NCBI GenBank assembly: GCA_042571515.1
Contig: JBHPHX010000001.1
Coordinates: 75,508 to 111,678 of the forward strand
From: Patescibacteria group bacterium
Lineage (GTDB): Bacteria; Patescibacteriota; WWE3; UBA101185; UBA10185
DNA length: 36,171 bases
Reading direction: 5' to 3'
Both the position numbers and the translations under genes were made by a program. Below are positions 1 through 20,854 of the stretch, in pieces. The stretch's first letter is position 1. Each line of letters opens with the position of its first letter. Under the pieces are notes generated by a model. That model was not told where the DNA came from and searched no databases. It worked only from the letters and a program-made list of their open reading frames with translations.

Positions 1-40
1 AGTATCCGACAACAGTGTGAAAAAACTATTAAGCTCCCTG

Positions 41-1132
41 TTAACCCCCCCACCTAAGCCTTGACTGGGTCTGTCTACCAACTCTTGTGACCGATAGGAA
101 ATGGTTTATGGCAGGGCGTCTGCCTTCCTCAAAATAATCCTTATCAAAAAATATATGACCATCTGTTATAGCCATTAGGTTCGTTTGAATATACCCCGAT
201 ATATCACCCTCTACGGTCTCTGCTACAACCAGACAAGTTATAGATTTGGGACCCTTATCAGTCTTAAAATTCCCCGCTCTCTCGAGTAACCTTGCATGTG
301 TGTAAAAAATGTCTCCGGGGTAGGATCCCCTTCCTGGAAACTTGTTATTAACCAAGGAAATTTCTCTGTAAAACTTAGCATGTGTGGTTAGATCATCCAG
401 AATCAGAAGGACGTCATGTCCTTGGTCTTTAAAATATTCCGCCAGGGCCATGGCCGTGTATGGAGTGATATAAATAAGGCCTAGGGGATCTGTAGAGGCT
501 GAGATTACCATCAGAAGCTTGTCCATAATTCCCTCCTCTTTAGCAAAATCCTCTATATTTCTTATATCAGCCTTTCTTTTAGCAATACTTGCATAAATAC
601 AAATTACATCCTCTTTAGCTTGTTTTAACATTGTCTGAAGTAAGAACTCGGTTTTTCCAATTTTTCTATCTCCAACAACAAGCTCTCTTTGCCCCCTGCC
701 AAGGGGGATCATGAGATCAACCAAAGTTACCCCAGTTAAAAACGGCTTGGTGATTCTTGATCTTTTGGCTATTTCTGGAGATGTAAAAACGTCAACCGCT
801 CTAAACTCCGGGTCACTTGGGAAGGGTCCGCTGCCCTCACACAGGGGGTTAAGGGATTGGCCCAGAAACGAAGTGTGTACCGGTACAGTAAGGTTTTTGT
901 TTGTACGAGCCACTTTACTACCAATTCCTATTCTAGGGTCACCAAGCAATAACACCTCTACGTATTCGTTTGTCATACCTAAAACATATCCAATTCCACC
1001 GGATTCAAATAGCACCAGCTCTCTGGGGCGGGCACCGGGCAATCCTTGTACCTGCACCACGGGGGGTTTAACAAGCTGAACGTATCCCAGCTCTTCTATC
1101 TCCTGTAGGCAGGTCTGAAAATCAAAATCCAT
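41..1132 (-). CDS. atpA: Divergent F1-ATPase alpha-like subunit, apparently frameshifted near the 3' end (an alternative frame stays open to the window edge)
   Basis: Motifs: GVTLVDLMIPLGRGQRELVVGDRKIGKT (Walker A), DVLLILDDL, PGRGSYPGDIFYTHARLLERAG, ITDGHIFF, GRRPAIN..SVTRVG. ATG at 1132 follows a GGAGGGGAG RBS. The stop follows a G7 run. Confidence 0.88.
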   Translation of the reverse strand: MDFDFQTCLQEIEELGYVQLVKPPVVQVQGLPGARPRELVLFESGGIGYVLGMTNEYVEVLLLGDPRIGIGSKVARTNKNLTVPVHTSFLGQSLNPLCEGSGPFPSDPEFRAVDVFTSPEIAKRSRITKPFLTGVTLVDLMIPLGRGQRELVVGDRKIGKTEFLLQTMLKQAKEDVICIYASIAKRKADIRNIEDFAKEEGIMDKLLMVISASTDPLGLIYITPYTAMALAEYFKDQGHDVLLILDDLTTHAKFYREISLVNNKFPGRGSYPGDIFYTHARLLERAGNFKTDKGPKSITCLVVAETVEGDISGYIQTNLMAITDGHIFFDKDYFEEGRRPAINHFLSVTRVGRQTQSRLRWGG

Positions 1133-1586
1133 CTCCCCTCCCCCATGGATAACTTTCAAAAATCTTGTCTAAAGTGGCGTTAAAATATACACCCTCATAC
1201 TCCATTATGACTCCACCATCCAGGAGGGTATTTACTTCAATATCAAGTAAAAACTCACCCCTCACATTATTTAAAAACCATGAGTAAACCTTCTCAATAA
1301 AAGACTCGCTTGGGAAAATGGCTATGGTTAGATGTATTACTTTTACATTTTTTAGATACCAAATTAAGTCATCTAAAACACCTGCTAAGTTCTTATTTTC
1401 ATACAGCGCGGAATCTAGCAAATTTGCCATTTCCAAGGATATAGATTCCTTTAAGGACTCCAAAACCAGGTGGTCTCCTTTTTTGAACAGCTCCCCACGC
1501 TTGTTCTCAAGTAGAGAAACTAGAGCTAGCGCAGCTTTGTGGGTTTTTATATTTTTACACCACTGTTTGGAAATTGCAGAATTCAT
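1122..1586 (-). CDS. atpH: ATP synthase delta/OSCP-like subunit
   Basis: C-terminus LDIEVNTLLDGGVIMEYEGVYFNATL resembles the delta C-terminal motif. Lies between b-like and alpha-like genes with overlapping stop/start codons. Confidence 0.7.
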   Translation of the reverse strand: MNSAISKQWCKNIKTHKAALALVSLLENKRGELFKKGDHLVLESLKESISLEMANLLDSALYENKNLAGVLDDLIWYLKNVKVIHLTIAIFPSESFIEKVYSWFLNNVRGEFLLDIEVNTLLDGGVIMEYEGVYFNATLDKIFESYPWGRGDGF

Positions 1587-2296
1587 ATCCTCTTGAACTT
1601 TTCAGAATTTTTTATTGTCTCTAGTGCATTGAGAATCAAATTCTCATGATCCTTGTTTGTCATAGATCTTCGTAAAATGTCTTGGGTGGCCTGATCAACT
1701 GTGCTTCGTAAGGTACCGTCTACTTCTTTTAGTTTTTGGTCCTTATATCGTTTTATTTCTTCATTTGTCTTAACTAATTCCTGATTAACTTTTTCCTCTA
1801 AACTCCCCTTTGTTTTGGCTACTTCTATCTTTAGTACTTCCACAAACTTTTCTAATTCCATCAGCATCTCACCTTTTATTTCATTGAACGACAGCTTGAA
1901 TTCCTTAAGGGCGATATCCTTTTCCACCTCCATTGTCTGCCTATACTTTTGGAACACGTTGTGGGTCAGTTCTTCAAAATGTTTAGCTTGGCTCCTGGCT
2001 ACCATATTCAATTTTTTAGTTAAACCTTCCTCTACATAATTGTGGAGCTCCCTAGACTCACTTAGAATATCCTGGGCTTTTCTGTTGGCACTTTTTACAA
2101 TCTGCAGAGACTCTTTTCTTGCTGTATCTACAATCTTTAGAGCCTCGGAATAGGCTTCTTCCTGAGAACCTTTTGCACTATTTTTTCTAAAGCGGGATTC
2201 AGCTATATGCGTGTATATAATATATAGCACAATGAAAATGAGGCTGGAAAAAGAAACTAAAAAGATAAAGAGCAAAGTATAATATAACGTCATCAT
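1583..2296 (-). CDS. atpF: ATP synthase b-like stator subunit, elongated (N-terminal TM plus long coiled coil)
   Basis: Single N-terminal hydrophobic helix, charged helical body, C-terminal ATQDILRRSMTNKDHENLILNALE like b subunits. Operon position fits. Confidence 0.6.
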   Translation of the reverse strand: MMTLYYTLLFIFLVSFSSLIFIVLYIIYTHIAESRFRKNSAKGSQEEAYSEALKIVDTARKESLQIVKSANRKAQDILSESRELHNYVEEGLTKKLNMVARSQAKHFEELTHNVFQKYRQTMEVEKDIALKEFKLSFNEIKGEMLMELEKFVEVLKIEVAKTKGSLEEKVNQELVKTNEEIKRYKDQKLKEVDGTLRSTVDQATQDILRRSMTNKDHENLILNALETIKNSEKFKRI

Positions 2297-2300
2297 ATAT

Positions 2301-3101
<801 letters not shown>

Positions 3102-3243
3102 CTATACATGAAGACTGACATACTTTTTCAAAAACCATTTATTGTTGGCGAGCAATTTAGCCTGGAAAAAAATATGACAATATTTACTCAAAAAAGGCCT
3201 GGAGATTGAGTTTATACTAAGAAAAAATTGAGTAAAAAAAGTG

Positions 3244-3272
3244 TTGACATTTTACTCTCAGCTACCTACTAT
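3244..3272 (+). promoter_or_regulatory. Sigma70-type promoter of the giant protein gene
   Basis: TTGACA-17 bp-TACTAT, about 60 bp upstream of the ATG at 3335. Confidence 0.7.
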
Positions 3273-3334
3273 ATACATAACCTTATTATTTGTTGAAACA
3301 ATAACCTTTAATAGGGTAAAAAGGTTTAGAAATT

Positions 3335-6300
3335 ATGCCTGCCCAAGGCCAAGCAAAAACACTATCATATCAGCCCCAATTAACTATTTCTAAGGCTGCA
3401 GTATTTTTGGGAATATCCCCCTCATCTCTCAGAAGGTATGAAAAAGAAGGTCGAATAACTACAAAACGACTAGAAAATGGGTACAGAGTATATTCTAAGG
3501 ATAACCTGGAGAGTTTAAGATCCAAACTCGAAATTGAAAGAAATCAAAGAAAAATTCAGATCCAAAAAAAAGCTATTGCTCGAAAAAAAGAATTGGAGAA
3601 ACTTCAAACGCAGCCGGAACCTGGGGTTATAAGATCAGACTTCGCAAAACCCTATTTGGCAAGTGGATTAAAAGTTTTTAGTTTAATCATTCTTTCAATT
3701 ACCCTATCCCTAGGAACGCTTTTTGTCCAGGATGATATTCCCTCTTTTTCAGGACAAATTGGCACTATCCTAGGCTTCAAAACTACAAAACCAGAAATGC
3801 AGGTTGGCTCTAGTGTAGAAGGTCAGGTTTTGGCAGATTATGACCTAAATAAAGAATACGAAATTAACTATAATATTCCTGCTACGTTCTTTGAAGGTGT
3901 AACCACAAACTCTATTTCTGGTGTAGAAATAATTGACACAACTACCGAGGATACCCTTGAAACAGCACTAGATATAGCTGGGGAGGTTGTTAGTACAGGT
4001 ATGCTATCTACTGTAATAGCAGATGGTGTCATAGATGGAGCTAATTTAATAGATGATTTTGAGTATGCGGGGGATGCGACGTTTAGTGGTGATACTACGT
4101 TCGGTGGTGAAGCTACATTTGAAGATAATGTATCCGTAGATGGGGAAACAGTGCTATCCGGAGATATTACACTAGAGGGAGATACTACAACAGAGGGTAC
4201 TTTTGACATAGATGGGGACTGGAGTATTTCTGGTACTGATGTAGACGCAACGGCAGATGAGCTCAACTCCATTGGTGGCGTAACAGATACTATAGCTATC
4301 ATTGATGGCTCTACTGTTACGGCAGGAGGGGTTATGTTTGGGAATGGAAGCATAATGACTCAGGATGCCGCGAATTTCTTTTGGGATGATACAAACAATT
4401 ACCTTGGACTTGGAAAAGCTAACCCAGCTTATGGACTAGATGTTGCAGGTACATTTAATGTAGATGGAGCAACTACACTTGATGGAGCGGTAACATTAGG
4501 AGATGCAACAGGTGATGATATAACAATAACAGGATATGTAGCATCAAATGTAATACCAAAAACTACCGATACCTATGACCTTGGCTTAAGTTCTGTTTCC
4601 AGAATGAATACCATGGATCAAGATCTTTCTGCTGCTGACGCTTCCTTTATTGGAGAAGATGCGGATGATTTTAGTGGCCATTTAGTCTCTTCAGCCGGTG
4701 ATGTTAATGGTGACGGTTATGATGATATTTTGATTGGGGCGGCTTGGGATTCCGACGGCATGGCGGCTGCGATGGCTGGTGAAACTTATCTAATCCTAGG
4801 CAAGGCTACGGGGTGGGCTATGGACACAGACTTATCGGCCGCTGATGCTTCCTTCATTAGTGAGGAGGCTACTGACAATAGCGGTTTTGCAGTCTCTTCC
4901 GCTGGTGATGTTAATGGTGATGGCTATGATGATATTTTGATTGGGGCTTGGGGTAATGATGACGGTGGCAATCCTTATGCCGGCCAGACTTATCTAATCC
5001 TAGGTAAAGCCACAGGCTGGGCCATGGATACGAATTTATCAACTGCCGATGCTTCATTTTGGGGTGAAAATGGCTGGGACAGAAGTGGTTTTGCAGTCTC
5101 TTCCGCTGGTGATGTTAATGGTGATGGCTATGATGATTTCGTCATTGGGGCCTGGGGCGATGACGATGGCGGCAACCTTGCTGGCCAGGCTTACCTTATC
5201 TTAGGTAAGGCTTCGGGCTGGGCCATGGATACTGATTTATCAGCTGTAGATGCTTCATTTTGGGGCGAGGCTGCTAGTGACTATGCTGGTTTCACAGTCT
5301 CTGCCGCTGGTGATGTTAACGGTGACGGCTATGATGATATGTTGGTAAGTGGTTATGGTAATAACCAGGTCTACCTTATCTTAGGTAAAGCTTCAGGTTG
5401 GGCCATGGATACCGATTTATCAGCCGTTGATGCCTCTTTTATTGGTGAGGGTAGTGGTCAGTACGTCGCCCTACGTACCGGACTTTCTTCAGCCGGTGAT
5501 GTTAATGGTGACGGTTATGATGATATTTTGATTGGGGCGGCTTATAACGATGATGGTGCCAATAATGCTGGCCAGACTTATCTAATCCTAGGTAAAGCTA
5601 CAGGCTGGGCCATGGATACGAATTTATCAACCGCTGACGCTTCCTTTTGGGGTGAGGTTGCTAGCGATCTTAGTGGTTATTCAGCCTCCTCAGCTGGTGA
5701 TGTTAATGGTGACGGTTATGATGATATTTTGATTGGGGCGGCTTACAATGACGATGGTGGCAGTGCCGCAGGTCAAACTTATCTTATTTTTGGAAAATCC
5801 TCGGGTTGGACTATGGATACGAATCTATCTGCTTCTGATGCCTCTTTCTGGGGTGAGGATACCAGTGATTATAGTGGTTATTCTGTTTCTGGTGCCGGGG
5901 ACACTAATGGCGACGGTTATGATGATATTTTAATTGGAGCCTTTGGTGATGATGATGGCGGCGAGAATGCAGGCCAAACATATTTGATTCTCTCCGATGG
6001 AAGTCAGTGGGATAATATATATGCTAGAAATGTAAAGGCTGGAGATTCTTTAAATGTAGGGGCTCATTTAAGATTACATCATGATACTATCCAGGCTTTG
6101 AGCCCCTTGTATTTAGATTCTACAAGAGTAAACGTTTTAGGTGGGTTAACTACTTTAGGGTATGTGGGTATAGGGTTCTCAGCACCAACTTCAGAACTTC
6201 ACATTGGAGGAACTACTCCCCTTTTAACAATAGGTGATGCGGGAGAAGAAGATACTGCTATGCTTTTTGATGGAGCTGCACAAGACTTTCACATTGGTCT

Positions 6301-9300
6301 TGATGATTCTTTAGATGATTTAGTTATCGGGACAGGATCAACTTTAGGTGCTGGTAACTTAGTAACTATTGAAAATGGAGGTAATGTAGGGATTGGAAAG
6401 ACTAATCCTGGGTATAACTTGGACGTTGCAGGTACATTTAATGTAGATGGAGCAACTACACTTGATGGAGCAGTAACATTAGGTGATGCAACAGGTGATG
6501 ATATAACAATAACAGGATATATAGCATCAGGTATTATTCCTAAAACAGATGATACATATGATCTAGGATCAGATGCATTAAGGTGGCAAAGTATATATGT
6601 AGGACCAGGATCTTTAAGTATAGGATCCTCTTCTCCAGATGAAGAATATACCCTATCCTGGGATGCAACAGAAAACTATCTTGGTTTTAACTACAATGCA
6701 TCAGGTAACCCTGAGATGGTTATTGATTCTTCAGGACAGGTGGGGATTGGAACGACAGCACCATCTTCGCAGCTTCAAGTAGCAGGAAACGTCGTTATTG
6801 GTGATGCCGCCACCGCCACAGACTACACTCTCACCTTTGATGGTGAAACTAATGATGGTGTTCTCACCTGGATGGAGAATGAAGACTATTTATTATTCAG
6901 CGACGATATTTACATGGCCTCCAGTCAAATCATATATTTTGACGGCGGGGGTGCAGCTCAAACGAATGGTGCTGGCCGTTTATATCTTACCGGACCAACC
7001 AGCATCGATTTTAGTTCTGGAATAGGTAACATAGATACAGTTTTGCGGTTTTTAGGGACTGATTATTCAGGTGTTCTCACCTGGATGGAAGACGAGGATT
7101 TGTTTTTATTTGATGACACTATAGAGATTAGAGGTACAGCTAAAAACCTTTTAATGACAGGGGTAGCCCACACTACCATATCTACTGATCCTATGCTTTC
7201 GATGGCAGCCAATGATTCTTTTCCTGTTGAAATGATTTCTGCTGGACCAGATAATAACGATAGCCCACTTATCAATTGGTTTAGAGCTAAAGGTACTCTG
7301 GAGGGTTCAGAAGCGGATGTTGTAGACGGTAACAGACTAGGAGCATTTCAGGCCAGAGCTTACGTGGGTGGGTGGCAACCAGCTTCAGCACAAATGAACT
7401 TTAGGGTTGATGGTGCACCAGGAACATATGCTCCAGGTTTGATTGAATTTACTGTAGGGGATGCAGATAATACTGCAGTTACCAGAACAGCTTTTCAGAT
7501 TAACAGTAATTTGAGTTCAAAAGCCTATGGTAATTTTACGATAGGAAATGGAGTAGCAACAACAGATTACACCCTCACCTTTGATGGTGAAACTAATGAT
7601 GGTGTTCTCACCTGGATGGAGGATGAAGACTACTTTCAGTTCTCTGATGAGATATTACTTCTAGACGGGGAGAAACTCATACTAGGTACTGGTAGCGACG
7701 GTACTCTTTACTCATCCTCTGATGATATCTACTTTGAAAATGATACCAGTGACAAAGATATCATCTTTAAGGTTAATGACGGGGGTGTAGATACTGAGGT
7801 AATGAGAATAGATTCCTCAACACCACAAATAGATTTTACTGTACTAGGGGTTAAAATTGGATCTGATACTTCTGAGTTTAACCCAACACTTACGTTCTCT
7901 GGTGTAGATAATGACGGCATTATAGGCTGGATGGAGGATGAAGACTACTTTTTGTTTCTTGATGACATTCTCCTTTTAGATGGTGAGAAACTAATCTTAG
8001 GGACTGGCTCTGACGGTACTCTTTACTCATCTTCTGATGATATATATTTTGAAAATGATACTCAAGATAAAGATATTATCTTTAAGATTAATGATAATGG
8101 TGTTGATACTGATATCTTGCATATTGATGGGAGTGAGTCCTGGATTGGTATAAGAACAGCTACTCCGCAGATGGGTATTGACTATGGTGGCGTGGGATCC
8201 TCGCATGGAACGTTTCTGTTTTCTGGGACTGCCGGTGGTGGCGGGGAGGGAATATCTTATGTAGATAGTGGCAGTGGTATGCGTAGAGCTATATCTTTCC
8301 CAGGAAGTGATCTTGTTGTACTCCAAAACAGAGCATCAAACGGTACAGTTGAGATAAGGGCTAATACATCAACAGCGGGCGAAAGTGGTGAACATACAAT
8401 TGGCACATTTGAAGATAACAAAATAACCATTGGGGACGGTCAAGCTGGAGTAGATTATCAATTAGCTTTCAATGGAGAAACTAACGACGGCCTCCTTACC
8501 TGGATGGAAGATGAAGATTACTTCCAGTTTGCCGATAATATAGTGGCACAAAATATTTTACCTGCGACAGATGATACATATGATTTAGGATCAGATGCAC
8601 TAAGATGGCAGAGTATATATGTAGGACCAGGATCTTTAAGTATAGGTTCCTCTTCTCCAGATGAGGAATATACCCTATCCTGGGATGCCACCTTAAACTA
8701 TCTTGGTTTTAACTACAATGCATCAGGTAACCCTGAGATGGTAATAGATTCATCAGGACAGGTGGGGATTGGGACTACGGCTCCAAGTACGGCTTTAGAC
8801 ATTGCCGGTACCGTCACTGCCACTGATTTTGCCTGCACAGACTGTTTGGAACAGGGAAATATCGCAAATAATGCCATTGGATACGGTGAATTAAAAATTG
8901 GCACCGGTTCTCAAGCGCTTAGTGATGATGCCAACGTAGACATGCATGAATACTCTTTCTTTCCCAACATGGAAAAAGATAATTGTGATAATGCTACTAG
9001 TCACGATTTGCAGATGTCTAATGATGATGAAACAGACAACACTGTCGGCCATTTCTATATTGATGTTAATAGCTCTTGTGGAGCAGGAGACGTCGATGTC
9101 CGCTGGAGCTACGTCACCTCCTCTGATCATCCTACTATCTGGACTATTATTGACTCTTTGGGCAACATCACCAAAAGCTGGGAAGCTGAGGATCCCACTG
9201 TCTATCCAGACAATCCCAATCCTCTTGCTGGTACCCCTCTTCAATCGGGAGAGTCATTCGCTTACGTTGAACCTCTAAGTATCTCCCAACTCAACACTAT

Positions 9301-10960
9301 TTATGCTTCTTTCCCTCAAACTGAGTATAATGCTATCTTTAGCGCTCTTAAACAATATTTGGTTGACGAAAGGCGCTTCCTCCCTTCCATGAGCTCCATT
9401 AATGATCTTAGCAATGTTCCCGATCGCTACCACTCAGCAGCTCGTTTCTGGGCTACCCGTTTTATCGCCAACCACTACGGTATCTCCCACTCTGAACTTA
9501 TAAAAAATACCATGTTTGTTATTTATGGGGATCTTACCCCCCAACCAAATTATTACACTTTTGTTTCTAACTATATTGACGAAAAAAACATTCAATTAGC
9601 TTCAATTAAAGTCAAGCAGGAACAACTTGATAACCTGCCCATCAACCAGAAACAGGCTGACATTGCCGAGTATTATTCCACTGGCAATAACACAAGGGAT
9701 CCAAAACCTGGAGATTTAATTTCTTTCAATCGTAAGGACAGCAGTTTTGTTACTCTAACTTCAAGATCCTATGACCCATATTTGATGGGGGTAATCTCTA
9801 CTTCTCCCCATGATACTCTGGGTCGCTCAACCGAGGATAATGATATTAAAGTTGCCTTGACAGGCAGGGCTCCTGTTAACATAAGTCCGTCAAGTGAGGC
9901 AATTGAACCTGGCGATCCAATTACATCTTCCAACACCAGTGGCTTGGGAACTAAAGCCCTAAAGCCCGGTTATGTAGTTGGTCGGGCTCTTGAATCCTGG
10001 CAGCCAGACTCAGACAAAAAATCGGTTTTAGTCCACCTTAACCTTCACTACTATGATCCTGATATTATGTTGGCAAAAAGTGATATAGACCTATTTACCT
10101 TCTCTTCAACAACTGATATAGACACTGGGGCTATTGACTTTCAACTCTTTAATCCCAATGATACCGCGGTTAGTAAAATCAACGCTTTTCAACATTTAGT
10201 CTCGGCCAATATCTCTTCGGGCTCTATTGAATCAGAGATCGTTACCGCCGACACCCTTAATATTCGGGGCCTGACCCTTGATGACTATATAGGCTCTGCT
10301 ATTCAAGGGGATCGGGAGCTGATTGAGGCTTTGCAGACAGAACAAGAGTTGGAGTGGGATAGTATAAATACTAGAGTAGATAACATAGAGGCATTATTGG
10401 AGGAATTGACTTCTGAAACTCAGGAAACAAGTGAATCTACAGAAACCCCGATAGAAACTCCATCTGAAATACTAGCTTCAATACAAAACATATTTGAGGA
10501 ATTTAAAACCTTTATAGCAGCACTGGGGCTATCCGCAACAGAAGAAACCGGGCTTGTTGTTGAAGTAGATATGAATGTACTTGGAGACACCACACTAGGA
10601 GACGTGGTAGTTACAGGGGACATACTAGCAGGACTGATTGAAATAAATACCCTAGATAACTTCATAAATATAAATAACATGATACTTCTTAAGGAAGATG
10701 GGACTGTGGAAGCCGAAAAACTTTCACTAAGTACCAACGTCTTGGGAACCTCCACAATTATAAAAGACGAAACTAAAGTAACAGTGGAAACCACCGCTAT
10801 AACAACCTCGTCTAAGGTCTTTGTCACTCCAACCATTGCAACTGATAGGGCGCTGGCCGTAACGGAAGTTAATGAGGGGGATGGGTTTGTAGTCGAGATA
10901 GGATCCTCTTCTAGCGAGGATATAGAGTTTAATTGGTTTATCGTAGACTCAAGAGAGTAA
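3335..10960 (+). CDS. Giant (2541 aa) membrane-anchored modular surface protein: MerR-type HTH, TM, FG-GAP propeller, tail-fibre-like repeats, IMC-like domain, coiled coil, C-terminal beta domain
   Basis: LTISKAAVFLGISPSSLRRYEKEG..R.ENGYRVY (HTH); VFSLIILSITLSLGTLFV (TM); 7x AGDxNGDGYDD; GxVGIGxxxP repeats; ADIAEYY...VVGRALESW; C-terminal ...EDIEFNWFIVD. Confidence 0.9.
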   Translation: MPAQGQAKTLSYQPQLTISKAAVFLGISPSSLRRYEKEGRITTKRLENGYRVYSKDNLESLRSKLEIERNQRKIQIQKKAIARKKELEKLQTQPEPGVIRSDFAKPYLASGLKVFSLIILSITLSLGTLFVQDDIPSFSGQIGTILGFKTTKPEMQVGSSVEGQVLADYDLNKEYEINYNIPATFFEGVTTNSISGVEIIDTTTEDTLETALDIAGEVVSTGMLSTVIADGVIDGANLIDDFEYAGDATFSGDTTFGGEATFEDNVSVDGETVLSGDITLEGDTTTEGTFDIDGDWSISGTDVDATADELNSIGGVTDTIAIIDGSTVTAGGVMFGNGSIMTQDAANFFWDDTNNYLGLGKANPAYGLDVAGTFNVDGATTLDGAVTLGDATGDDITITGYVASNVIPKTTDTYDLGLSSVSRMNTMDQDLSAADASFIGEDADDFSGHLVSSAGDVNGDGYDDILIGAAWDSDGMAAAMAGETYLILGKATGWAMDTDLSAADASFISEEATDNSGFAVSSAGDVNGDGYDDILIGAWGNDDGGNPYAGQTYLILGKATGWAMDTNLSTADASFWGENGWDRSGFAVSSAGDVNGDGYDDFVIGAWGDDDGGNLAGQAYLILGKASGWAMDTDLSAVDASFWGEAASDYAGFTVSAAGDVNGDGYDDMLVSGYGNNQVYLILGKASGWAMDTDLSAVDASFIGEGSGQYVALRTGLSSAGDVNGDGYDDILIGAAYNDDGANNAGQTYLILGKATGWAMDTNLSTADASFWGEVASDLSGYSASSAGDVNGDGYDDILIGAAYNDDGGSAAGQTYLIFGKSSGWTMDTNLSASDASFWGEDTSDYSGYSVSGAGDTNGDGYDDILIGAFGDDDGGENAGQTYLILSDGSQWDNIYARNVKAGDSLNVGAHLRLHHDTIQALSPLYLDSTRVNVLGGLTTLGYVGIGFSAPTSELHIGGTTPLLTIGDAGEEDTAMLFDGAAQDFHIGLDDSLDDLVIGTGSTLGAGNLVTIENGGNVGIGKTNPGYNLDVAGTFNVDGATTLDGAVTLGDATGDDITITGYIASGIIPKTDDTYDLGSDALRWQSIYVGPGSLSIGSSSPDEEYTLSWDATENYLGFNYNASGNPEMVIDSSGQVGIGTTAPSSQLQVAGNVVIGDAATATDYTLTFDGETNDGVLTWMENEDYLLFSDDIYMASSQIIYFDGGGAAQTNGAGRLYLTGPTSIDFSSGIGNIDTVLRFLGTDYSGVLTWMEDEDLFLFDDTIEIRGTAKNLLMTGVAHTTISTDPMLSMAANDSFPVEMISAGPDNNDSPLINWFRAKGTLEGSEADVVDGNRLGAFQARAYVGGWQPASAQMNFRVDGAPGTYAPGLIEFTVGDADNTAVTRTAFQINSNLSSKAYGNFTIGNGVATTDYTLTFDGETNDGVLTWMEDEDYFQFSDEILLLDGEKLILGTGSDGTLYSSSDDIYFENDTSDKDIIFKVNDGGVDTEVMRIDSSTPQIDFTVLGVKIGSDTSEFNPTLTFSGVDNDGIIGWMEDEDYFLFLDDILLLDGEKLILGTGSDGTLYSSSDDIYFENDTQDKDIIFKINDNGVDTDILHIDGSESWIGIRTATPQMGIDYGGVGSSHGTFLFSGTAGGGGEGISYVDSGSGMRRAISFPGSDLVVLQNRASNGTVEIRANTSTAGESGEHTIGTFEDNKITIGDGQAGVDYQLAFNGETNDGLLTWMEDEDYFQFADNIVAQNILPATDDTYDLGSDALRWQSIYVGPGSLSIGSSSPDEEYTLSWDATLNYLGFNYNASGNPEMVIDSSGQVGIGTTAPSTALDIAGTVTATDFACTDCLEQGNIANNAIGYGELKIGTGSQALSDDANVDMHEYSFFPNMEKDNCDNATSHDLQMSNDDETDNTVGHFYIDVNSSCGAGDVDVRWSYVTSSDHPTIWTIIDSLGNITKSWEAEDPTVYPDNPNPLAGTPLQSGESFAYVEPLSISQLNTIYASFPQTEYNAIFSALKQYLVDERRFLPSMSSINDLSNVPDRYHSAARFWATRFIANHYGISHSELIKNTMFVIYGDLTPQPNYYTFVSNYIDEKNIQLASIKVKQEQLDNLPINQKQADIAEYYSTGNNTRDPKPGDLISFNRKDSSFVTLTSRSYDPYLMGVISTSPHDTLGRSTEDNDIKVALTGRAPVNISPSSEAIEPGDPITSSNTSGLGTKALKPGYVVGRALESWQPDSDKKSVLVHLNLHYYDPDIMLAKSDIDLFTFSSTTDIDTGAIDFQLFNPNDTAVSKINAFQHLVSANISSGSIESEIVTADTLNIRGLTLDDYIGSAIQGDRELIEALQTEQELEWDSINTRVDNIEALLEELTSETQETSESTETPIETPSEILASIQNIFEEFKTFIAALGLSATEETGLVVEVDMNVLGDTTLGDVVVTGDILAGLIEINTLDNFININNMILLKEDGTVEAEKLSLSTNVLGTSTIIKDETKVTVETTAITTSSKVFVTPTIATDRALAVTEVNEGDGFVVEIGSSSSEDIEFNWFIVDSRE
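4442..6529 (+). repeat. Near-identical 105-bp intragenic direct repeats (4442-4546 and 6425-6529)
   Basis: Both encode VAGTFNVDGATTLDGAVTLGDATGDDITITGY(V/I)AS, with only a few nucleotide differences. Confidence 0.9.
4604..5992 (+). repeat. Seven tandem ~200-bp FG-GAP (integrin-alpha-like) repeats within the giant ORF
   Basis: AGD(V/T)NGDGYDD cores near 4691, 4898, 5101, 5303, 5490, 5691 and 5891; most are followed by YLILGKAxGWAMDT. Confidence 0.9.
6545..8772 (+). repeat. Near-identical 206-bp intragenic direct repeats (6545-6750 and 8567-8772), enclosing further repeats (DGxLTWMEDEDY about 5x; LLDGEKLILGTGSDG... 2x)
   Basis: Both encode TDDTYDLGSDALRWQSIYVGPGSLSIG...PEMVIDSSGQVGIG; differences are mostly at third codon positions. 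Confidence 0.9.
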
Positions 10961-15500: not shown

Positions 15501-15611
15501 GAAAACGAATATGTCCTACGTCACTAAGTCCTCGCAATTCTGTAACTCACTTCGTTCCTAACAGAATTAGCTGCGAAACCGTGACTTTAGGACATTCTCG
15601 TTTTCTTTTTT
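15501..15611 (+). terminator. Long (~105 nt) imperfect hairpin with T-tract between convergent rplL and galT-like genes
   Basis: Nested arms gaaaacga/tcgttttc, atgtccta/taggacat, gtcac/gtgac, tcgc/gcga, aattctgt/acagaatt; followed by Ts. Confidence 0.6.
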
Positions 15612-16579
15612 CATTTTTTTGCTTCGTCTGCGATTGTGACATTACAGCCACCATCTCCACATAAAGCTTCAATGGCCTCTCCTAAAGCTTTTGCTGCATC
15701 CTCTGGTGTGGCTTTATCACTTACCCAAATTCCAGCCCCTAACTCCAGTCCACCAAAAACCTTCAGGTGGGGTATAAACCCCATATGCCAGTGGTAAGGC
15801 TCATGTCTTTGAGTGTGAATCCAAAAGTTTCTATCTGGTTTGTCAAATAATGCGTTGTATGCACCTAAGGCTAACTTCAGGACCATCGCTAGGTCATTTA
15901 TCTCTACCTCATTAATAAAGCCAAAATTTGGCTTATGTGATTTGGGAAGAAGCATTACCTCGTAACTCCATCGGGAGGCCTCGGGTACCAAAATAACAAA
16001 GTGGCCCGAATCATAAGCAATTCTAGAACCATCTGCCAATTCCTTTTCCAGCAAATCACACCAAAAACACCTGTTGTACTCGTTAAAATAATGCAAAGCC
16101 TCCTCCTTCTCCCTTTCAATAATCCCGGGAAATCCTTTAAGTGCAACAATTTGAGAGTGGGGGTGAACTAAGGAAGCTCCGGCTTTTCCTCCCCTATTAT
16201 TAAATATAAAAACCTCTTTATCCTGACCCGTAAAGTGATGTAGCCGATTTAGAAGAGCACGAATTATCCGCACCCCCTGTTCATGGGGTAATCCCTCAAT
16301 ATCTCTATTCTCATATGGGGAGTGTACAACTATCTCATGATCCTCAAGAATGGGAAATTTATTCGGAAAAACACGCACATTCCAATCATCTGTATCTTGG
16401 TAGCTTGCTTCAGGTGTTAGGTGCTCATTTCCTTTGGCAAAAAAATCAACCTTCTTCTCTGGTTTCTTCTTTTTCTTTTTACCTCCTGCGACAGCCCCAG
16501 TCTGGTCCGCTCTTTTAGCACGGCTGGTAGCCAAAATTGTAGGATATTTTGTTAGCTCATCAAATACAAAGTTACTCAT
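15611..16579 (-). CDS. galT: GalT-family hexose-1-phosphate nucleotidyltransferase
   Basis: VRVFPNKFP, HEIVVHSP, AGASLVHPHSQ, CFWC, YHWH, GGLELGAG. Confidence 0.85.
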   Translation of the reverse strand: MSNFVFDELTKYPTILATSRAKRADQTGAVAGGKKKKKKPEKKVDFFAKGNEHLTPEASYQDTDDWNVRVFPNKFPILEDHEIVVHSPYENRDIEGLPHEQGVRIIRALLNRLHHFTGQDKEVFIFNNRGGKAGASLVHPHSQIVALKGFPGIIEREKEEALHYFNEYNRCFWCDLLEKELADGSRIAYDSGHFVILVPEASRWSYEVMLLPKSHKPNFGFINEVEINDLAMVLKLALGAYNALFDKPDRNFWIHTQRHEPYHWHMGFIPHLKVFGGLELGAGIWVSDKATPEDAAKALGEAIEALCGDGGCNVTIADEAKK

Positions 16580-17982
16580 ATGGACAGTTCTATAATTTTA
16601 TTGTATAGGTCCTTGTACTTTTTTGCACTAACTTCCCAACCAAAGTCCTCTTTCATCGCAAACTTCACCATTTGTTCGTAATCACCACTTTCCCAAACTT
16701 TAAGTGCCTCAAAAATGGCCTCCACTAGTTGTTTACTTGTATATTTTTCAAAGACAAAACCGTTGTGACCGTGTTTAACAGTATCTTTCAGCCCCCCAAC
16801 CCCTCTCACAATAGGCAAACTGCCGTACCACATAGAAATCATTTGTGTTAGACCACAGGGTTCATATTTTGAGGGAATTAGGAAAAAGTCACTTGCTGCA
16901 TAAATTTCTCTGGCTAGATCCACATCAAACATAATATTGCACGACACGTCTCCCTTCAGACCTTCGGTACTATTTAGCTTCTCAAATTTTTTCTCCCAAG
17001 TAGGACTTCCTGTACCCAGTAGAACAAACTGACCACCTTTGTGAACAATTGATGGTACAGCTTCATGCAAGATATCAAGCCCTTTTTGTCTTGGATCCAA
17101 TCTAGAAATAAAGCCAAAAATAGGTTTGTCACCATCTATATTTAACCCCAATTTGTCTTTTAAACTCTCCTTGTGTCCCTTTTTAACAGTTTTCCAATTG
17201 TCAACATTAAAATCCCTTGGAAAAACCGAGTAATCAATCCCGTTTAGAATGCCCACCAACCTATCTTTTCTGGATACTAAAACATCAGTTAGATCTATAC
17301 CAAATTCTGGGGTTTTTATCTCTTCGGCGTAGCTCTCAGAAACCGTGTTAACATAATCGCTAGTAGTCACTCCCTGCAAGAGCAAACTAATATCTCCGTC
17401 TTGGATATCCCAATCTATTAGTGGGTGTACGCCTGGGTTCAAACCCAAATCCTTAACCAATTCTGGATCCCCCTTACCTTGGTAGAGCAGGTTATGGATT
17501 GTAAACAAAGTACCCGGCCTCTCCGCGTGTAGCTCTTCATTTAATAAGTGGGTAACCATGCCGGTGTGCCAGTCGTGGCAGTGAATAACGTCGTAAGTGT
17601 TAAATCTAGCCTTGATATACTCCACTACAACCCTGCAAAAGAAAGAATACATTTCCGTCTCAGAAGCATTATTTAAAAAAGCGCTCTTGCCACCAATATT
17701 GAAATACTTAGAACTCCTAGGCAATAGCACATCTACATTAGATTTGGGTAGCTTTGTCTTAAATATCTCAACCGTGTGAGACTCTCCATCAAAAGGCACC
17801 TCTATTTCCAAAGCCTTAATAAGTTTGAACTTTACTTTTTTTATTGTGGGGTAAAATGGGACAATAACATCCGCATCAATTCCTAGACTTTCTAGAGACT
17901 TAGGTAAGGAGCCTATTACATCGCCAAGACCCCCCATCTTTACAATTGGAGCCACTTCCGAGGCAGCAAGAAGTACTTTCAT
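16576..17982 (-). CDS. glgA: Glycogen synthase (GT5)
   Basis: KMGGLGDV, HCHDWH, FTIHNL.YQG, GILNGID, PSKYEPCGLTQM, GGLKDTV. Confidence 0.93.
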   Translation of the reverse strand: MKVLLAASEVAPIVKMGGLGDVIGSLPKSLESLGIDADVIVPFYPTIKKVKFKLIKALEIEVPFDGESHTVEIFKTKLPKSNVDVLLPRSSKYFNIGGKSAFLNNASETEMYSFFCRVVVEYIKARFNTYDVIHCHDWHTGMVTHLLNEELHAERPGTLFTIHNLLYQGKGDPELVKDLGLNPGVHPLIDWDIQDGDISLLLQGVTTSDYVNTVSESYAEEIKTPEFGIDLTDVLVSRKDRLVGILNGIDYSVFPRDFNVDNWKTVKKGHKESLKDKLGLNIDGDKPIFGFISRLDPRQKGLDILHEAVPSIVHKGGQFVLLGTGSPTWEKKFEKLNSTEGLKGDVSCNIMFDVDLAREIYAASDFFLIPSKYEPCGLTQMISMWYGSLPIVRGVGGLKDTVKHGHNGFVFEKYTSKQLVEAIFEALKVWESGDYEQMVKFAMKEDFGWEVSAKKYKDLYNKIIELSI

Positions 17983-18002
17983 AAGTTATAGAGTAACACA
18001 TT

Positions 18003-19475
18003 TCACATTTGCCTAAAATTCTTCTTTGCAAAATCGCTAAATTCCTTTGGATCGTGTTCAAGATATGGTTTAACAGAGGGTATTTGCCTAGCAGTCCAAA
18101 GCTCATTTACGATATGCAACACATCATAGATATCGGTACCTTGCTTCAGCTTCAAAATCGCATCCCTCCACTTAATGGCCTTTTCAAAATCTCTCTTTTC
18201 TGCTGCTTTTTTCATCTCATCCTCAAATTCTAGAATAATTTGGTTATACCACTCTGCAGGGGCGCGCTTGTTGAAAGGCTCTTTCATATATGTACTTGAG
18301 TTTTCTAAATGCATTTTCCTAATGTGTCCAGTTCTTTGCCACTCAAACGCCTGGTCCATTATTTTTCTGTATAGATCATCCGCTTTACCTAATTGTCGCT
18401 CTGAACTCCCTAGTTTAACCAACACCTCTTTTAAGCTATATGCCCCAAATTCAATCATTTCCAAACTCCACCAGGGCTTGGCCGAGGCCCACCAAAACTG
18501 ATCAGATGCAATTGCTTTGTCCATTAATTCCCTAGCCTGTTTATAATCTTCAGTTTCTTTATCTTTTTGGGATCTAACAGCTTCCAAAACATACTCCAGT
18601 AGCTCCCATTGAAGTTTGTGAATTGGGTTGCTGGGATCCTTCCAAAGTATAAAAGAATTTTGTTCGGTATATTCATCTCCCAACCAATAATCCTGTTCTT
18701 CATTTGTCCAGGTACTCGGACGAATAGAAACCTCCTCAACGTCGTTAATGTCCAATTCGGATGTAAAACTTGAGTTCATGTGATTTAGTATGTCAAACAG
18801 TACTTTTTCATGACCAATTCTATGATGTCCGAAGGTTTCAGCATCCATAACACAGAACCAATATTTACCCTGCTGTTGTAGATCTTTCGTCTCCTTTAAC
18901 AATGATTCAACATCTCTGATAACGGCAGATAGGATTAAGGCGCTTACTCTCTTGTTTCTAAAAAACACATGTAGACCAGAGTCCTTATCCTTATAAATTT
19001 TGGTGGAAACTTCACTATTTTCCTTTTTGGCAATTTGCGGGGCAGCAATCCATTTGTACCCCATCTCTAAAACGATCTTTAATACTTTTGGGTTTACAGC
19101 CATTTCGGGTGAAAAAAACCCTTTCGGGTTATATAGGTCCCCAAATACTTCCTTATGTAGGTCGTCATTAAGTTCTATTTGTCTTTTTATCTCTTCTTCC
19201 TGTAGTAAAGGTAAAAAAGCATGGTGCATACTGCTAGAAGTAAATTCGATTTGGTTTTGTTTCGCAAGTTTTTTTATATCTTCTATAACATCTTTGTACC
19301 CATTTTCTAGAAGCAGTTTTGTTAGAACACCACTAACGTTAATAGTCACTTTAGCATTTTTATTTTTTAGTAATCCTTTGAGAAGGGGTCGGTAGCTCTC
19401 GTTTACAACCCTATCCAAAATATCAAATTGCTGGTTGTGGGGCTGATAAAAATGGAGTAAAAAACAGATTTTCAC
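18003..19475 (-). CDS. Glycoside hydrolase family 57 protein with C-terminal UvrB/UvrC-type helical hairpin
   Basis: LHFYQP, ESYRP, HAFLPL, GFFSPEMA, MDAETFGHH, SDQFWW; EMKKAAEKRDFEKAIKWRD near the C-terminus. GTG start. Confidence 0.85.
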   Translation of the reverse strand: MKICFLLHFYQPHNQQFDILDRVVNESYRPLLKGLLKNKNAKVTINVSGVLTKLLLENGYKDVIEDIKKLAKQNQIEFTSSSMHHAFLPLLQEEEIKRQIELNDDLHKEVFGDLYNPKGFFSPEMAVNPKVLKIVLEMGYKWIAAPQIAKKENSEVSTKIYKDKDSGLHVFFRNKRVSALILSAVIRDVESLLKETKDLQQQGKYWFCVMDAETFGHHRIGHEKVLFDILNHMNSSFTSELDINDVEEVSIRPSTWTNEEQDYWLGDEYTEQNSFILWKDPSNPIHKLQWELLEYVLEAVRSQKDKETEDYKQARELMDKAIASDQFWWASAKPWWSLEMIEFGAYSLKEVLVKLGSSERQLGKADDLYRKIMDQAFEWQRTGHIRKMHLENSSTYMKEPFNKRAPAEWYNQIILEFEDEMKKAAEKRDFEKAIKWRDAILKLKQGTDIYDVLHIVNELWTARQIPSVKPYLEHDPKEFSDFAKKNFRQM

Positions 19476-20692
19476 AGTTTTCCTTCAATTTCTGCGACTT
19501 TTTCAGCTATGCCGGAAGTATCCTGACCTATTCTGGCATACTTTTCATACTGGGCCAGAATTTCTCTAATTATCTCTGGGTTGTAGAGATTTTTCCCCAT
19601 GATTTCTTTTTTTGAGGCCCACCAAAATTGATCACTATTCATAAGTTGTAAAACTAATAATTCTTTAGAAATATCTTTCTCAAAAACCTCATTTTGTATA
19701 GAGCCTAACTTTTCTGTATCCCAAATTGGGAACGCTCCTAAATTCTCAATAACTTCTGTTGGGGTTTCCGGCTTGTAATTTTCTAAAACTTCATTTAACA
19801 AATTCCACAGCTCGTCCTGTACCTCGCTCCCAGAATTTACCCAAAATGGATAAATATTTCCATCGGAAATATCCTCTAAGGAAGCCCCCCAGGTGGACTC
19901 TGCTATATTATTGACATTTTGATTAACGCCATCCCCCATTGCTTGAGAAACCGTTGTCATATTTATTCCGAAATTTTCACACTCACTTAATAAACCCTCC
20001 AGGACATAAATCCCCTCTTTATAGTGATGTCCAAAATATTCCGCATCCAGCGCTACTACGGCAATATCTTTTATTTTTTGAGCCTCCGAAAGAATGTCAT
20101 GAACATCTGTGTCGCGTTTAAATGAAATTAGGTTACTCAGTCCTGTGTGTCTGACTGCAATTTTTATCTGTGAATCCTCCAAGTTTAGAAAGGCTTTGTC
20201 CCGTTTTTCTACGGCAACAGAATCCACCAAAACCCACTCGTACCCCAAGTCATTTAAGACTCGTACCACAGATTCGGATACTGCCAATTCGGGCGGGAAG
20301 AATCCTCTTACATTTTTAACTAAAATGGCGTCCTCTCCCTCAAAACCCTTATGGTTACCAAAATAAAATCCCAGACCATACTCATTTAATAAAATTTGCT
20401 TCTCTACCGCCCAATCTGGCATTTTCGGCAACAGGGCGTGGTAAGCCGCGCTTGAAACCAACTCAATAGAACCAGTCTCTGATAGTTCTTTGATTGAATC
20501 TAGGAACTCGGAATATCCATGCTTGTGGAGTTGATAAATTGTGCTAAGTGGAATACTCAATGTTACAGATGCGTGTTTGTTGTTTTTTAGGAACCGTACT
20601 AAAGGCAAATACGAGGCATCAGCAATCTTCCTAAAGACTTTTGGGTCTTGAAAGGAGGGTTGATACATATGCAAGACAAGAGCTAAATTCAC
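19472..20692 (-). CDS. Glycoside hydrolase family 57 protein
   Basis: LHMYQP, YHALLP, GFFPPELA, LDAEYFGHH, SDQFWW. GTG start. Confidence 0.85.
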   Translation of the reverse strand: MNLALVLHMYQPSFQDPKVFRKIADASYLPLVRFLKNNKHASVTLSIPLSTIYQLHKHGYSEFLDSIKELSETGSIELVSSAAYHALLPKMPDWAVEKQILLNEYGLGFYFGNHKGFEGEDAILVKNVRGFFPPELAVSESVVRVLNDLGYEWVLVDSVAVEKRDKAFLNLEDSQIKIAVRHTGLSNLISFKRDTDVHDILSEAQKIKDIAVVALDAEYFGHHYKEGIYVLEGLLSECENFGINMTTVSQAMGDGVNQNVNNIAESTWGASLEDISDGNIYPFWVNSGSEVQDELWNLLNEVLENYKPETPTEVIENLGAFPIWDTEKLGSIQNEVFEKDISKELLVLQLMNSDQFWWASKKEIMGKNLYNPEIIREILAQYEKYARIGQDTSGIAEKVAEIEGKL

Positions 20693-20714
20693 AGAGTGAT
20701 TATACCAAAACGAA

Positions 20715-20816
20715 CAAAAAATCCCAGAGTTTGTCCTGGGAGAGACCGTCTCATATTCTCCTGCCCACAGAATAAGAGACGTTAACGTCTAACCCAGGAC
20801 AAGCCCTAGGATTAGT
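20715..20816 (-). ncRNA. Candidate ~100-nt rod-shaped small RNA
   Basis: Own near-consensus promoter; nested pairing aatcc/ggatt, ttgtcctggg/cccaggacaa, agac/gtct, cgtctc/gagacg, tattct/agaata; ends in a U6 tract. Confidence 0.55.
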
Positions 20817-20822
20817 GCAGTC

Positions 20823-20851
20823 AGTATAGCAAATGTATATAGGTCTGTCAA
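20823..20851 (-). promoter_or_regulatory. Sigma70 promoter of the candidate sRNA
   Basis: Minus-strand TTGACA-17 bp-TATACT with an extended TG. Confidence 0.75.
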
Positions 20852-20854
20852 ATA

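Follow-up and report, generated by a model that had tools for sequence, protein, structure and literature searches.

Genes and features at the locus

We analysed a 36,171-nucleotide stretch of DNA from a Patescibacteria group bacterium of the WWE3 lineage (GenBank assembly GCA_042571515.1, contig JBHPHX010000001.1), referred to in full as the window. The source assembly (genome G000) comprises 557 kb in 31 contigs, is 75.5% complete and contains the window at C1:75508-111678. At the left end of the window, an operon for a remodelled F-type ATPase on the minus strand lies head-to-head with a gene for a giant surface protein on the plus strand (Table 1). A preliminary description made from the sequence had proposed that this ATPase is not a chemiosmotic ATP synthase, and that its c-like subunit contacts the giant protein through a domain that the two have in common.

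The minus-strand order of c-like, b-like, delta-like and alpha genes was as that description had it, and the open reading frames (ORFs) agreed with those it had listed. It had also remarked that no gene for subunit a stands ahead of the c-like gene, and a 245-bp gap indeed leads from there directly to the divergent giant gene. The genes left of the window, where gamma and beta had been suggested as the ones to look for, are gamma, beta and epsilon, directly following alpha. The operon has seven co-linear genes: c-like, b, delta, alpha, gamma, beta and epsilon. We place the probable start of the c-like gene inside its ORF because residue 10 is the first one in the database copy (P0002) as well as in the Atlas record.

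Two sets of genomes were used for comparison. The relatives set consisted of G000 and 40 related genomes, and 26 of these 41 were read as holding a full c-like gene. The phylum sample consisted of 201 evenly drawn Patescibacteria genomes, each at least 85% complete, of which 19 hold a full c-like gene.

The alpha gene of the window is broken by a run of seven G. Its downstream part stays open and conserved: the ORF at C1:75145-75588 contains GGGVNRELNSFFTLLSD, which matches the relatives' alpha past RWGVNRE. In 18 relatives, the alpha ORFs of this operon (type B) are 427-515 amino acids long, most of them 483-515. The break is local, since both halves are carried by a single ORF in 17 of the 18. 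The run may be an assembly error, a slipped-strand and possibly phase-variable variant, or a recent frameshift.

Table 1. Coordinates of features in the window (positions counted from its first letter).
Feature	Position	Strand	Basis or remark
Alpha subunit, C-terminal part, shifted frame, running on past the left window edge	1-81	minus	relatives' alpha
Alpha subunit, N-terminal part, 372 amino acids (P-loop GDRKIGKT, Arg-finger motif TRVG)	41-1159	minus	PF00006
7-G run breaking the alpha reading frame	45-51	minus	relatives' reading (RWGVNRE) requires 6 G
Delta (OSCP-type) subunit, short, 154 amino acids	1122-1586	minus	family profile A2
b-type peripheral-stalk subunit, 248 amino acids as listed; start perhaps the Met of MMT...	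1583-2329	minus	family profile A3
c-like ORF	2301-3089	minus	262 amino acids; probable start 3062
c-like two-helix hairpin, residues 186-262	2304-2534	minus	hhalign and structure comparison; helix 2 without carboxylate
c-like exported N-terminal domain, residues 33-160, beta-tulip type	2610-2993	minus	model pLDDT 86
c-like signal peptide	3000-3062	minus	sequence reading; cleavage site inferred
Intergenic control region	3090-3334		promoter-like site, inverted repeat, leader stem
Half-sites related to the inverted repeat	3183-3191 and 3206-3214		
Perfect 8+8 inverted repeat	3230-3257		GAGTAAAA/TTTTACTC
Promoter-like site of the giant gene	3244-3272	plus	TTGACA
Leader stem or palindrome	about 3280-3317		consensus AACCTTACTAAATGTTG...CATTTnATAAGG
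Giant surface protein, 2541 amino acids, 7 FG-GAP repeats (best Pfam stretch residues 719-750)	3335-10960	plus	ORF and Pfam
Giant N-module: MerR-type helix-turn-helix 3383-3520, membrane helix about 3656-3727, first ectodomain	3335-4480	plus	Pfam MerR, alignment A5
Domain common to giant and c-like protein, giant residues 2109-2240	9659-10054	plus	preceded by A-DIAE-YY
Giant C-terminal module, residues 2330-2541	10322-10957	plus	BLASTP; weak Pfam K1-lyase_C match, E 0.0013
206-residue ORF between DprA and L10/L12	13741-14361		marginal IS200-like Y1 transposase match
Glycogen operon	15611-22387		

F1 head and stalk subunits

The catalytic motifs of the F1 head are intact, with Walker A, the catalytic Glu and the Arg finger present (GGSGVGKT, GERTREG and LFFMDN in beta; GDRKIGKT and TRVG in alpha). 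Alpha matched PF00006 with an E-value of 1.8e-66, and PF00006 occurs twice in the operon. With the NCBIfam alpha models, alpha scored 329-360 bits, below the family cut-off. In the close relative G001, beta lay just over the NCBIfam atpD cut-off (481 vs 463 bits), alpha, gamma (72 vs 194 bits) and epsilon (38 vs 67 bits) matched their NCBIfam models below cut-off, and b and delta matched no NCBIfam ATP-synthase b or delta model.

Both stalk subunits were recognised with family profiles. The delta-like profile matched solved delta subunits (E 7e-7), and 8 of 14 members matched Pfam OSCP; the window's own delta-like copy, searched alone, gave no match. For the b-like profile the top solved matches were ATP synthase b chains (E 1.7e-6 and 1e-4), and the protein has a single N-terminal membrane helix followed by a long helix. 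Epsilon is short, with 83-123 amino acids in the relatives' operons.

The order c-like...alpha-gamma-beta-epsilon was retained in 18 of 20 relatives' loci; among these 18, single-sequence phmmer detected b at 17 loci and delta at 13. In G008 (L030, G008:C14, 8597-9415), a b-like gene of 272 amino acids abuts alpha without a separate delta and may be a b-delta fusion. Four other loci whose delta was missed by the single-sequence search have a gap of fitting size.

A c-like subunit without the ion-binding carboxylate

The c-like family is large: of 4806 candidates, 1084 clusters reached E≤0.001. Lengths in the 120 members listed are 211-298 amino acids; among these, 11 carry the JGI COG name subunit c/K, one is an NCBI 'ATP synthase F0 subunit C', two are named 'signal peptidase I', and the remainder are hypothetical or unnamed. 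Twenty-three aligned members share one architecture, namely a hydrophobic N-terminus, a domain of about 130 residues, a linker, and two membrane helices with a near-invariant loop. Wherever the N-terminus of an aligned member is complete, it is hydrophobic and precedes the domain. Although their identity to the window's copy is only 44-57%, the 23 sequences have 34 invariant columns.

We compared the hairpin with four canonical c subunits from related genomes using hhalign, which aligned them with a probability of 94.5 and an E-value of 7.5e-8. The alignment puts the canonical ion-binding Glu (AFAEAL) opposite F246, and no acidic residue was found in helix 2 in any of the 23 aligned members. 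R226, N227 and P228, which belong to the cytoplasmic RNP loop, are invariant, as is N241, and T245 is near-invariant. In F-ATPase c subunits, the RNP loop contacts gamma and epsilon. The AlphaFold model of the c-like protein (predicted local distance difference test score, pLDDT, 86) consists of a beta domain at residues 33-160 and a helical hairpin at 189-261. When compared with c subunits (VIA), the modelled hairpin reached a Z of about 10 with root-mean-square deviations (rmsd) of 1.5-2.3. Helical hairpins commonly reach such Z, so the sequence profile is the stronger evidence for homology. Judged by this profile, the c-like hairpin is homologous to subunit c.

Absence of subunit a and relation to canonical F1Fo

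Whether canonical atpB and atpE genes elsewhere might serve this F1 had been raised in the preliminary description. PF00119 and the ATP-synt_C model PF00137 both had zero matches at E≤10 in G000, which is 75.5% complete. Among the 41 genomes of the relatives set, PF00119 was found in six, and PF00137 above cut-off in the same six. In G008, G020 and G026 a canonical a-c-...-alpha-beta operon occurs in addition to the c-like operon, the two lying on separate contigs. Since only these three combine the two operons, PF00119 is absent from 23 of the 26 holders of the c-like gene. In the phylum sample, PF00119 occurred in 104 of 201 genomes; seven of the 19 c-like holders have both, and 12 are without a. 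TIGR01131 and PF01496 had no match over cut-off in five holders, including the single-contig G017. PF00119 was also without a match in the complete genome of WWE3 RAAC2 (CP006914.1), which has the c-like gene. The missing a subunit, together with the Phe at the position of the ion-binding Glu, supports the earlier claim to the extent that the ATPase is not a normal chemiosmotic ATP synthase.

We also examined how alpha and beta of the two operon types are related. In a tree of Patescibacteria sequences only, reported from a quick search and midpoint-rooted, canonical alpha and canonical beta each formed one clade, apart from the type-B copies, with 100% support in the Shimodaira-Hasegawa-like approximate likelihood ratio test (SH-aLRT). 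By this sequence comparison, the c-like operon is a lineage separate from canonical F1Fo that coexists with it in some genomes. The system is conserved in Patescibacteria, including WWE3, Levybacteria and others.

The divergent giant protein

The N-terminus of the giant contains a MerR-type helix-turn-helix (HTH) that matched PF00376 with 39.1 bits (cut-off 28.2) and PF13411 with 29.1 bits (cut-off 21.6). This HTH has invariant residues across 15 syntenic giants. The head-to-head pairing of giant and operon, a central element of the preliminary description, proved to be conserved: the gene immediately beside the c-like gene, in divergent orientation, encodes a protein homologous to the giant over its first ~380 residues (the N-module), and often over the last ~200 too. 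An adjacent divergent N-module was present in 14 of 20 relatives, and G019, G025, G035 and G039 have one within about 7 kb of the operon. Another 13 holders came from the phylum sample, seven of them with the N-module beside the c-like gene. In five out of five named genomes, the N-module is divergent and 0.2-1.6 kb from the operon.

The association extends to whole genomes. Strong full-length N-module matches (E≤1e-50) were found in 15 of the 26 genomes with a c-like gene and in none of the 15 without. In G000, G017, G023 and G015 the N-module is single-copy, with all matches in one open frame beside the operon, and G001 carries two adjacent copies. The syntenic partners vary in size from 1795 amino acids to open frames of 6425 (G023) and 8840 (G015) amino acids. 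The C-terminal module is common to the syntenic giants of G001, G017, G023 and G175, and is also found in second neighbouring ORFs of G009 and G099. An AlphaFold model of the C-terminal 456 residues of the window's giant, made from a five-row alignment, had a mean pLDDT of 50, which is too low for a fold search.

The G015 frame (L042, G015:C7) contains many repeats of a unit of about 70 residues, which is also found at residues ~300-376 of the window's giant. The partner locus in G023 is L043 (G023:C14, from 750751 onwards).

The exported domain shared with the giant protein

The domain that the c-like protein was said to have in common with the giant was recovered, at a level far above chance. 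BLASTP aligned c-like residues 38-144 with giant residues 2115-2222 (39/110 identities, 35%, E 3e-9), and the c-like family profile matched the giant with an E-value of 1.6e-17. When the whole 557-kb genome was searched with either domain using tblastn, just two copies were found (E 2.6e-10 and 6e-10), the next match having an E-value of at least 0.5.

The fold of the c-like copy, the one compared, is of a phage type. Its best fold match (VIA) was the C-terminal fragment of phi29 gp12 (3gqh_A; Z 13.7, rmsd 2.5, 115 aligned residues at 21% identity), followed by phage cement or decoration proteins with Z 8-11.5. Foldseek agreed on the gp12 fold (E 7e-4), Pfam gave a weak Phage_cement_2 match for the c-like protein, and one of its structure neighbours in the Atlas is a Peptidase_G2 cluster. 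A profile of the giant-type domain found no gp12 match among PDB sequences, where its best match was an Aureispira grappling-hook protein (E 0.053). When 32 short homologues of the giant's domain were compared with Pfam Peptidase_G2 (PF11962, the IMC autoproteolytic domain), six matched at E≤0.01, two of them above cut-off, and some of these matches fall on a second copy of the domain. Of the two window proteins, neither the c-like protein nor the giant matches PF11962.

The domain is widespread, with 8071 other cluster representatives at E≤0.001. The best 150 of these are 522-5766 amino acids long, and in them the domain ends a median of 440 residues short of the C-terminus. A D-[LIVFY]-A-E motif marks its N-terminal edge in 135 of the best 150 homologues, and reads DIAE in the giant. 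In the c-like copy, D-F-A-V stands directly behind the signal peptide and the Glu of the motif is absent. We take the D-x-A-E motif to be comparable to the catalytic pair and cleavage site of gp12. Release of gp12 requires ATP. According to the relevant parts of a preprint on gp12, its D4 domain is a tandem beta-tulip 'autochaperone' for trimerisation and has sequence homology to some bacterial adhesion proteins (10.1101/216911).

As a conserved link to the giant, the shared domain failed. It is absent from the complete syntenic giants of G017 (1799 amino acids) and G023 (6421 amino acids) and from the 8840-residue frame of G015, by BLAST and whole-genome searches. Nor did the expected co-occurrence appear, large proteins with the domain being found in 10 of 26 operon-holding and 5 of 15 operon-free relatives. 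The like-with-like docking envisaged in the preliminary description is not supported. In these comparisons of sequence, the conserved link between operon and giant is synteny and not the shared domain. A predicted complex of c-like residues 31-185 with the first ectodomain of the giant (residues 132-400) scored 0.10 against a mark of 0.32, which is no evidence either way.

We also considered the adjacency of a domain-bearing giant within 10 kb on either side. This was counted in two of 20 loci and was rejected as a measure, the giant genes being cut by the limits of the stretches or by contig ends; the conserved feature is the N-module.

The divergent control region

The region between the two start sites contains several signals. 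A promoter-like site for the giant gene includes a TTGACA at the -35 position, and a perfect inverted repeat of 8+8 nucleotides, GAGTAAAA/TTTTACTC, lies across it. This repeat may serve as an operator to which the giant's own MerR-type head binds. Half-sites related to it lie upstream (Table 1).

Between the promoter-like site and the giant start lies a leader stem with the consensus AACCTTACTAAATGTTG...CATTTnATAAGG, whose 3' arm overlaps the likely ribosome-binding site. It is kept in 12 genomes (the window and the same place in L021-L030 and L037). RNAalifold predicted no consensus structure for the leader, and the stem was then assessed by hand. Seventy-five percent of cells were paired, against 36-48% when the arms were slid, and compensatory changes were seen in 7 of 11 pairs. 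Rfam gave no match within 3000-3450. The stem may be an RNA hairpin or an operator.

Other genes in the window and record labels

The remaining window genes are ordinary housekeeping genes: ComM-like, DprA, L10/L12, a glycogen operon, MreB, sortase, NDK, ArgRS and ComEC/ComEA. The glycogen operon encodes a GalT-like protein, two starch-synthase-type glycosyltransferases and two GH57 proteins. It resembles that of WWE3 RAAC2 (Kantor et al. 2013) minus an alpha-amylase-like gene, in keeping with a WWE3-like origin for the window. The short ORF between DprA and L10/L12 matches an IS200-like Y1 transposase with 26.3 bits (cut-off 23).

Relative G025 (L040, G025:C5) has a diverged c-like gene at 9957-10736 with the loop LTELSRNPMG. 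The genes between it and the MerR-headed giant are ArgRS, MBL-fold, ComEC and ComEA, those found at 29.6-33.8 kb in the window.

Eight public records of metagenome-assembled genomes (MAGs) with a Patescibacteria-type c-like gene are titled 'uncultured Gammaproteobacteria' (L115, L116, L125, L127, L128, L140, L143 and L144). Many other c-like-bearing MAG records are titled 'uncultured Candidatus Saccharibacteria'. Both titles look generic or wrong.

Interpretation

The best explanation of the locus is a lineage-specific, remodelled F-type ATPase of Patescibacteria that is paired with one giant surface protein. The reading that fits best is a non-chemiosmotic, ATP-driven role coupled to this protein, to which we give about even credence; a motor, export or docking function would be a further step from the sequence. 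With both the ion site and the a subunit missing, the system is predicted to lack coupling to an ion gradient. F1 would hydrolyse ATP, and an ion gradient would be neither used nor made. Hydrolysis would turn or strain the ring against a head held by b and delta, and the ring would carry along its exported domains, a crown on the outer side of the membrane. The giant would be the working partner of the ATPase, as load, substrate or anchor, and its HTH is probably also a regulator of the shared divergent promoter region.

A bolder version of this proposal, which we consider rather unlikely, is a transmembrane mechanical transducer. Cytoplasmic ATP would turn an ion-blind ring, and the beta-tulip crown would do work outside, where no ATP exists. 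It could act on the giant adhesin-like fibre in the manner of a swivel or a tensioner, or use the energy to chaperone or release it. The MerR head of the fibre would feed back on the shared promoter. This would be the first rotary ATPase with an extracellular mechanical output.

Several observations weigh against a coupled, ATP-driven machine. In G025, whose genome is 99% complete, the c-like gene persists with a giant N-module 6 kb off, yet there are no F1 genes, and therefore the c-like protein may work without the ATPase. No N-module was found near the operon in the relatives G024 and G031, nor in 4 of the 13 further phylum-sample holders within the stretch examined; in two more of the 13 the contig ends early. 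Related genomes are not independent samples, and counts over the relatives are to be read accordingly. Helix 1 lacks the glycine-rich packing motif of canonical c subunits, and therefore ring formation is unproven. Without an a subunit it is hard to see what would hold the stator against the rotor, and a very divergent a subunit could have escaped the three profile models. In the window itself, the frameshifted alpha may leave the local copy of the ATPase inactive. The whole model is a prediction from sequence and structure modelling.

Two alternatives keep the giant at the centre. One is that the link is regulatory only: the giant would be a membrane-tethered MerR-type regulator and sensor that controls the ATPase operon and itself, and the task of the ATPase, such as ATP turnover, would be unrelated to the ectodomain. 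Divergent gene layouts are typical of MerR regulators, and the layout here, the HTH above the Pfam cut-offs with its invariant residues in 15 syntenic giants, the inverted repeat across the -35 and the conserved leader palindrome with its compensatory changes all suit this idea. However, compensatory changes are no less expected of an RNA hairpin than of a protein operator, G025 retains the c-like and giant genes and not F1, and the idea leaves unexplained why a ring subunit should have an exported domain of the kind found in large surface proteins. We regard a purely regulatory link as unlikely, and it is compatible with the ATP-driven role rather than exclusive of it. The other alternative, which we also hold to be improbable, is an export or assembly machine in which F1 and the c-like ring translocate, fold or release the giant ectodomain, the gp12-D4-like domain acting as an autochaperone in trans or docking with the giant's copy. 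This draws on the match to the gp12 autochaperone fold (Z 13.7), a trimerisation domain with homology to some bacterial adhesion proteins in the parts of the gp12 preprint cited above (10.1101/216911). It also draws on the contrast between D-x-A-E in 135 of 150 giant-type copies and D-F-A-V in the c-like copy. Since D-F-A-V directly follows the signal peptide, the c-like domain resembles one that has already been released. A copy acting in trans could serve those syntenic giants that lack a shared domain of their own. On the other hand, the domain is a common module (8071 representatives) that occurs in large proteins without genome-level co-occurrence with the operon (10/26 vs 5/15), and gp12 was without a sequence-level match in the PDB search. 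Moreover, we know of no c-ring that conducts proteins.

Two further alternatives concern the ATPase itself. It might still translocate ions, as an ATP synthase or a pump, if its a subunit has escaped recognition and its ion site is an unusual one, for example at Asn241/Thr245. The set of F1 and stalk subunits is complete, and helix 2 has two conserved polar residues, N241 and T245. The literature, as far as its relevant passages go, takes F-type ATPases of Patescibacteria as ordinary, and Kantor et al. 2013 (PMC3812714), in the main-text passage concerned, assumed a, b and c beside F1. Yet no a was found by PF00119, TIGR01131 or PF01496, complete genomes included, and the operon has no spare gene, the three before alpha being c-like, b and delta. 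To our knowledge, every characterised rotary ATPase needs a carboxylate in the ring, and this position is Phe here. A canonical operon is also kept besides the c-like one in 7 of 19 phylum-sample holders and 3 of 26 relatives. We consider ion translocation very unlikely. Finally, the operon might be the decaying relic of an ATP synthase that has lost a and its ion site and is being eliminated, as the frameshift in G000, the loss of F1 in G025, the scores of gamma, epsilon and alpha below NCBIfam cut-offs and the lack of model matches for b and delta could suggest. For the family as a whole, decay is already unlikely, and we find it scarcely credible, since the family combines large size (1084 clusters) with tight conservation (34 invariant columns in 23 sequences), alpha ORFs of 427-515 amino acids are found in the operons of 18 relatives, catalytic motifs are intact, and gene order and giant partner persist in different families of the phylum.

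Textbooks present rotary F-type ATPases as machines coupled to ions; here the ring would be kept but ion-blind and would bear an exported domain. In most holders this is the only F-type ATPase. If the ATP-driven, non-chemiosmotic role is true, 'complex V' or ATP-synthase calls in metabolic reconstructions would be wrong for these lineages, and there would be a definite machine, open to testing, in the attachment or surface dynamics of episymbiont-like cells. For structural and biochemical work, complete genomes such as CP006914.1 offer defined targets.

Comparison with known systems

The ATPase operon of WWE3 RAAC2 (CP006914.1) is the same system, with a c-like gene, an adjacent divergent giant (a frame of 4483 amino acids) and no PF00119. 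The main text of Kantor et al. 2013 (PMC3812714) noted this odd operon in one paragraph, in which a, b and c were assumed, the direction of the enzyme and its ion were left open, and the putative c subunit was said to resemble a membrane protein of OP11/WWE3 ATPase operons. The main-text passages concerned do not report that a is missing or the carboxylate lost, nor do they mention the exported domain or the giant partner, and the supplements may bear on these points. Our literature search, supplements aside, found no prior description of any of these four features. A 2026 rotary-ATPase preprint (10.64898/2026.10.01.756066) examined 'unusual genomic neighborhoods' of candidate phyla radiation (CPR) beta subunits; the sections of it covered here do not describe the system, which its supplementary figures may show. 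Other papers on Patescibacteria and a 2026 review, in their pertinent parts, take the F-type ATPase as ordinary. Beyond the paragraph of 2013, the system thus appears to be undescribed in the literature searched.

Like canonical F1Fo, the system has alpha, beta, gamma, epsilon, delta, b and a c-homologous hairpin in the canonical order minus a. It differs in the absence of a, in the change from ring Glu to Phe and in not keeping the glycine-rich helix-1 motif. Its c-like subunit has a signal peptide and an exported domain of about 130 residues, b is about 80 residues longer than the 156-171 amino acids of solved b chains, epsilon is short, and alpha, gamma and epsilon fall below family cut-offs. 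N-ATPases, too, are encoded by a divergent F-type operon additional to the main one, but the alt_F1F0 models gave only 321-429 bits against cut-offs of 750-752. N-ATPases retain a and an ion-binding c, in a different gene order.

In its c-like copy, the shared domain has the fold of phi29 gp12 D4 (gp12 residues 692-854) and of phage cement beta-tulips, and some homologues of the giant's copy match Peptidase_G2. Unlike in gp12 D4, the domain of the c-like protein is N-terminal, stands behind a signal peptide and is fused to a membrane hairpin, and the Glu of D-x-A-E is absent. MerR regulators are soluble dimers that have a C-terminal effector domain and bind an operator in their own divergent promoter. 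The N-terminus of the giant has a MerR-type HTH above Pfam cut-offs, but a membrane helix and a huge ectodomain take the place of the effector domain, and operator binding is putative.

The Type 2 and Type 3 F1-like ATPases of Mycoplasma are the closest in concept. They too are an extra F1-type ATPase, beside or instead of a genuine one; their membrane sector departs from the canonical one, and their bearers are host-dependent bacteria with reduced genomes. The F1-like gliding motor of M. mobile works with giant surface proteins. The two systems are not homologous at family level, models of MSC_0618/0619 and MMOB1660/1670 giving 234-392 bits against cut-offs of 520-850. Mycoplasma F1-like clusters are without b, delta and c and have three unrelated proteins instead, as stated in the relevant passages of Beven et al. 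2012 (PMC3369863), whereas b, delta and a c-derived subunit are retained here. For the gliding-motor ATPase of M. mobile, the pertinent parts of Toyonaga et al. 2021 and 2025 provide the reference. We therefore see the Mycoplasma enzymes as the nearest functional analogy to the system described here, which is not a member of their family. By this analogy, the system would be a second, independent case of such a remodelled ATPase, in the other of the two great groups of host-dependent bacteria with reduced genomes, and one that is synteny-locked to a single giant surface protein.

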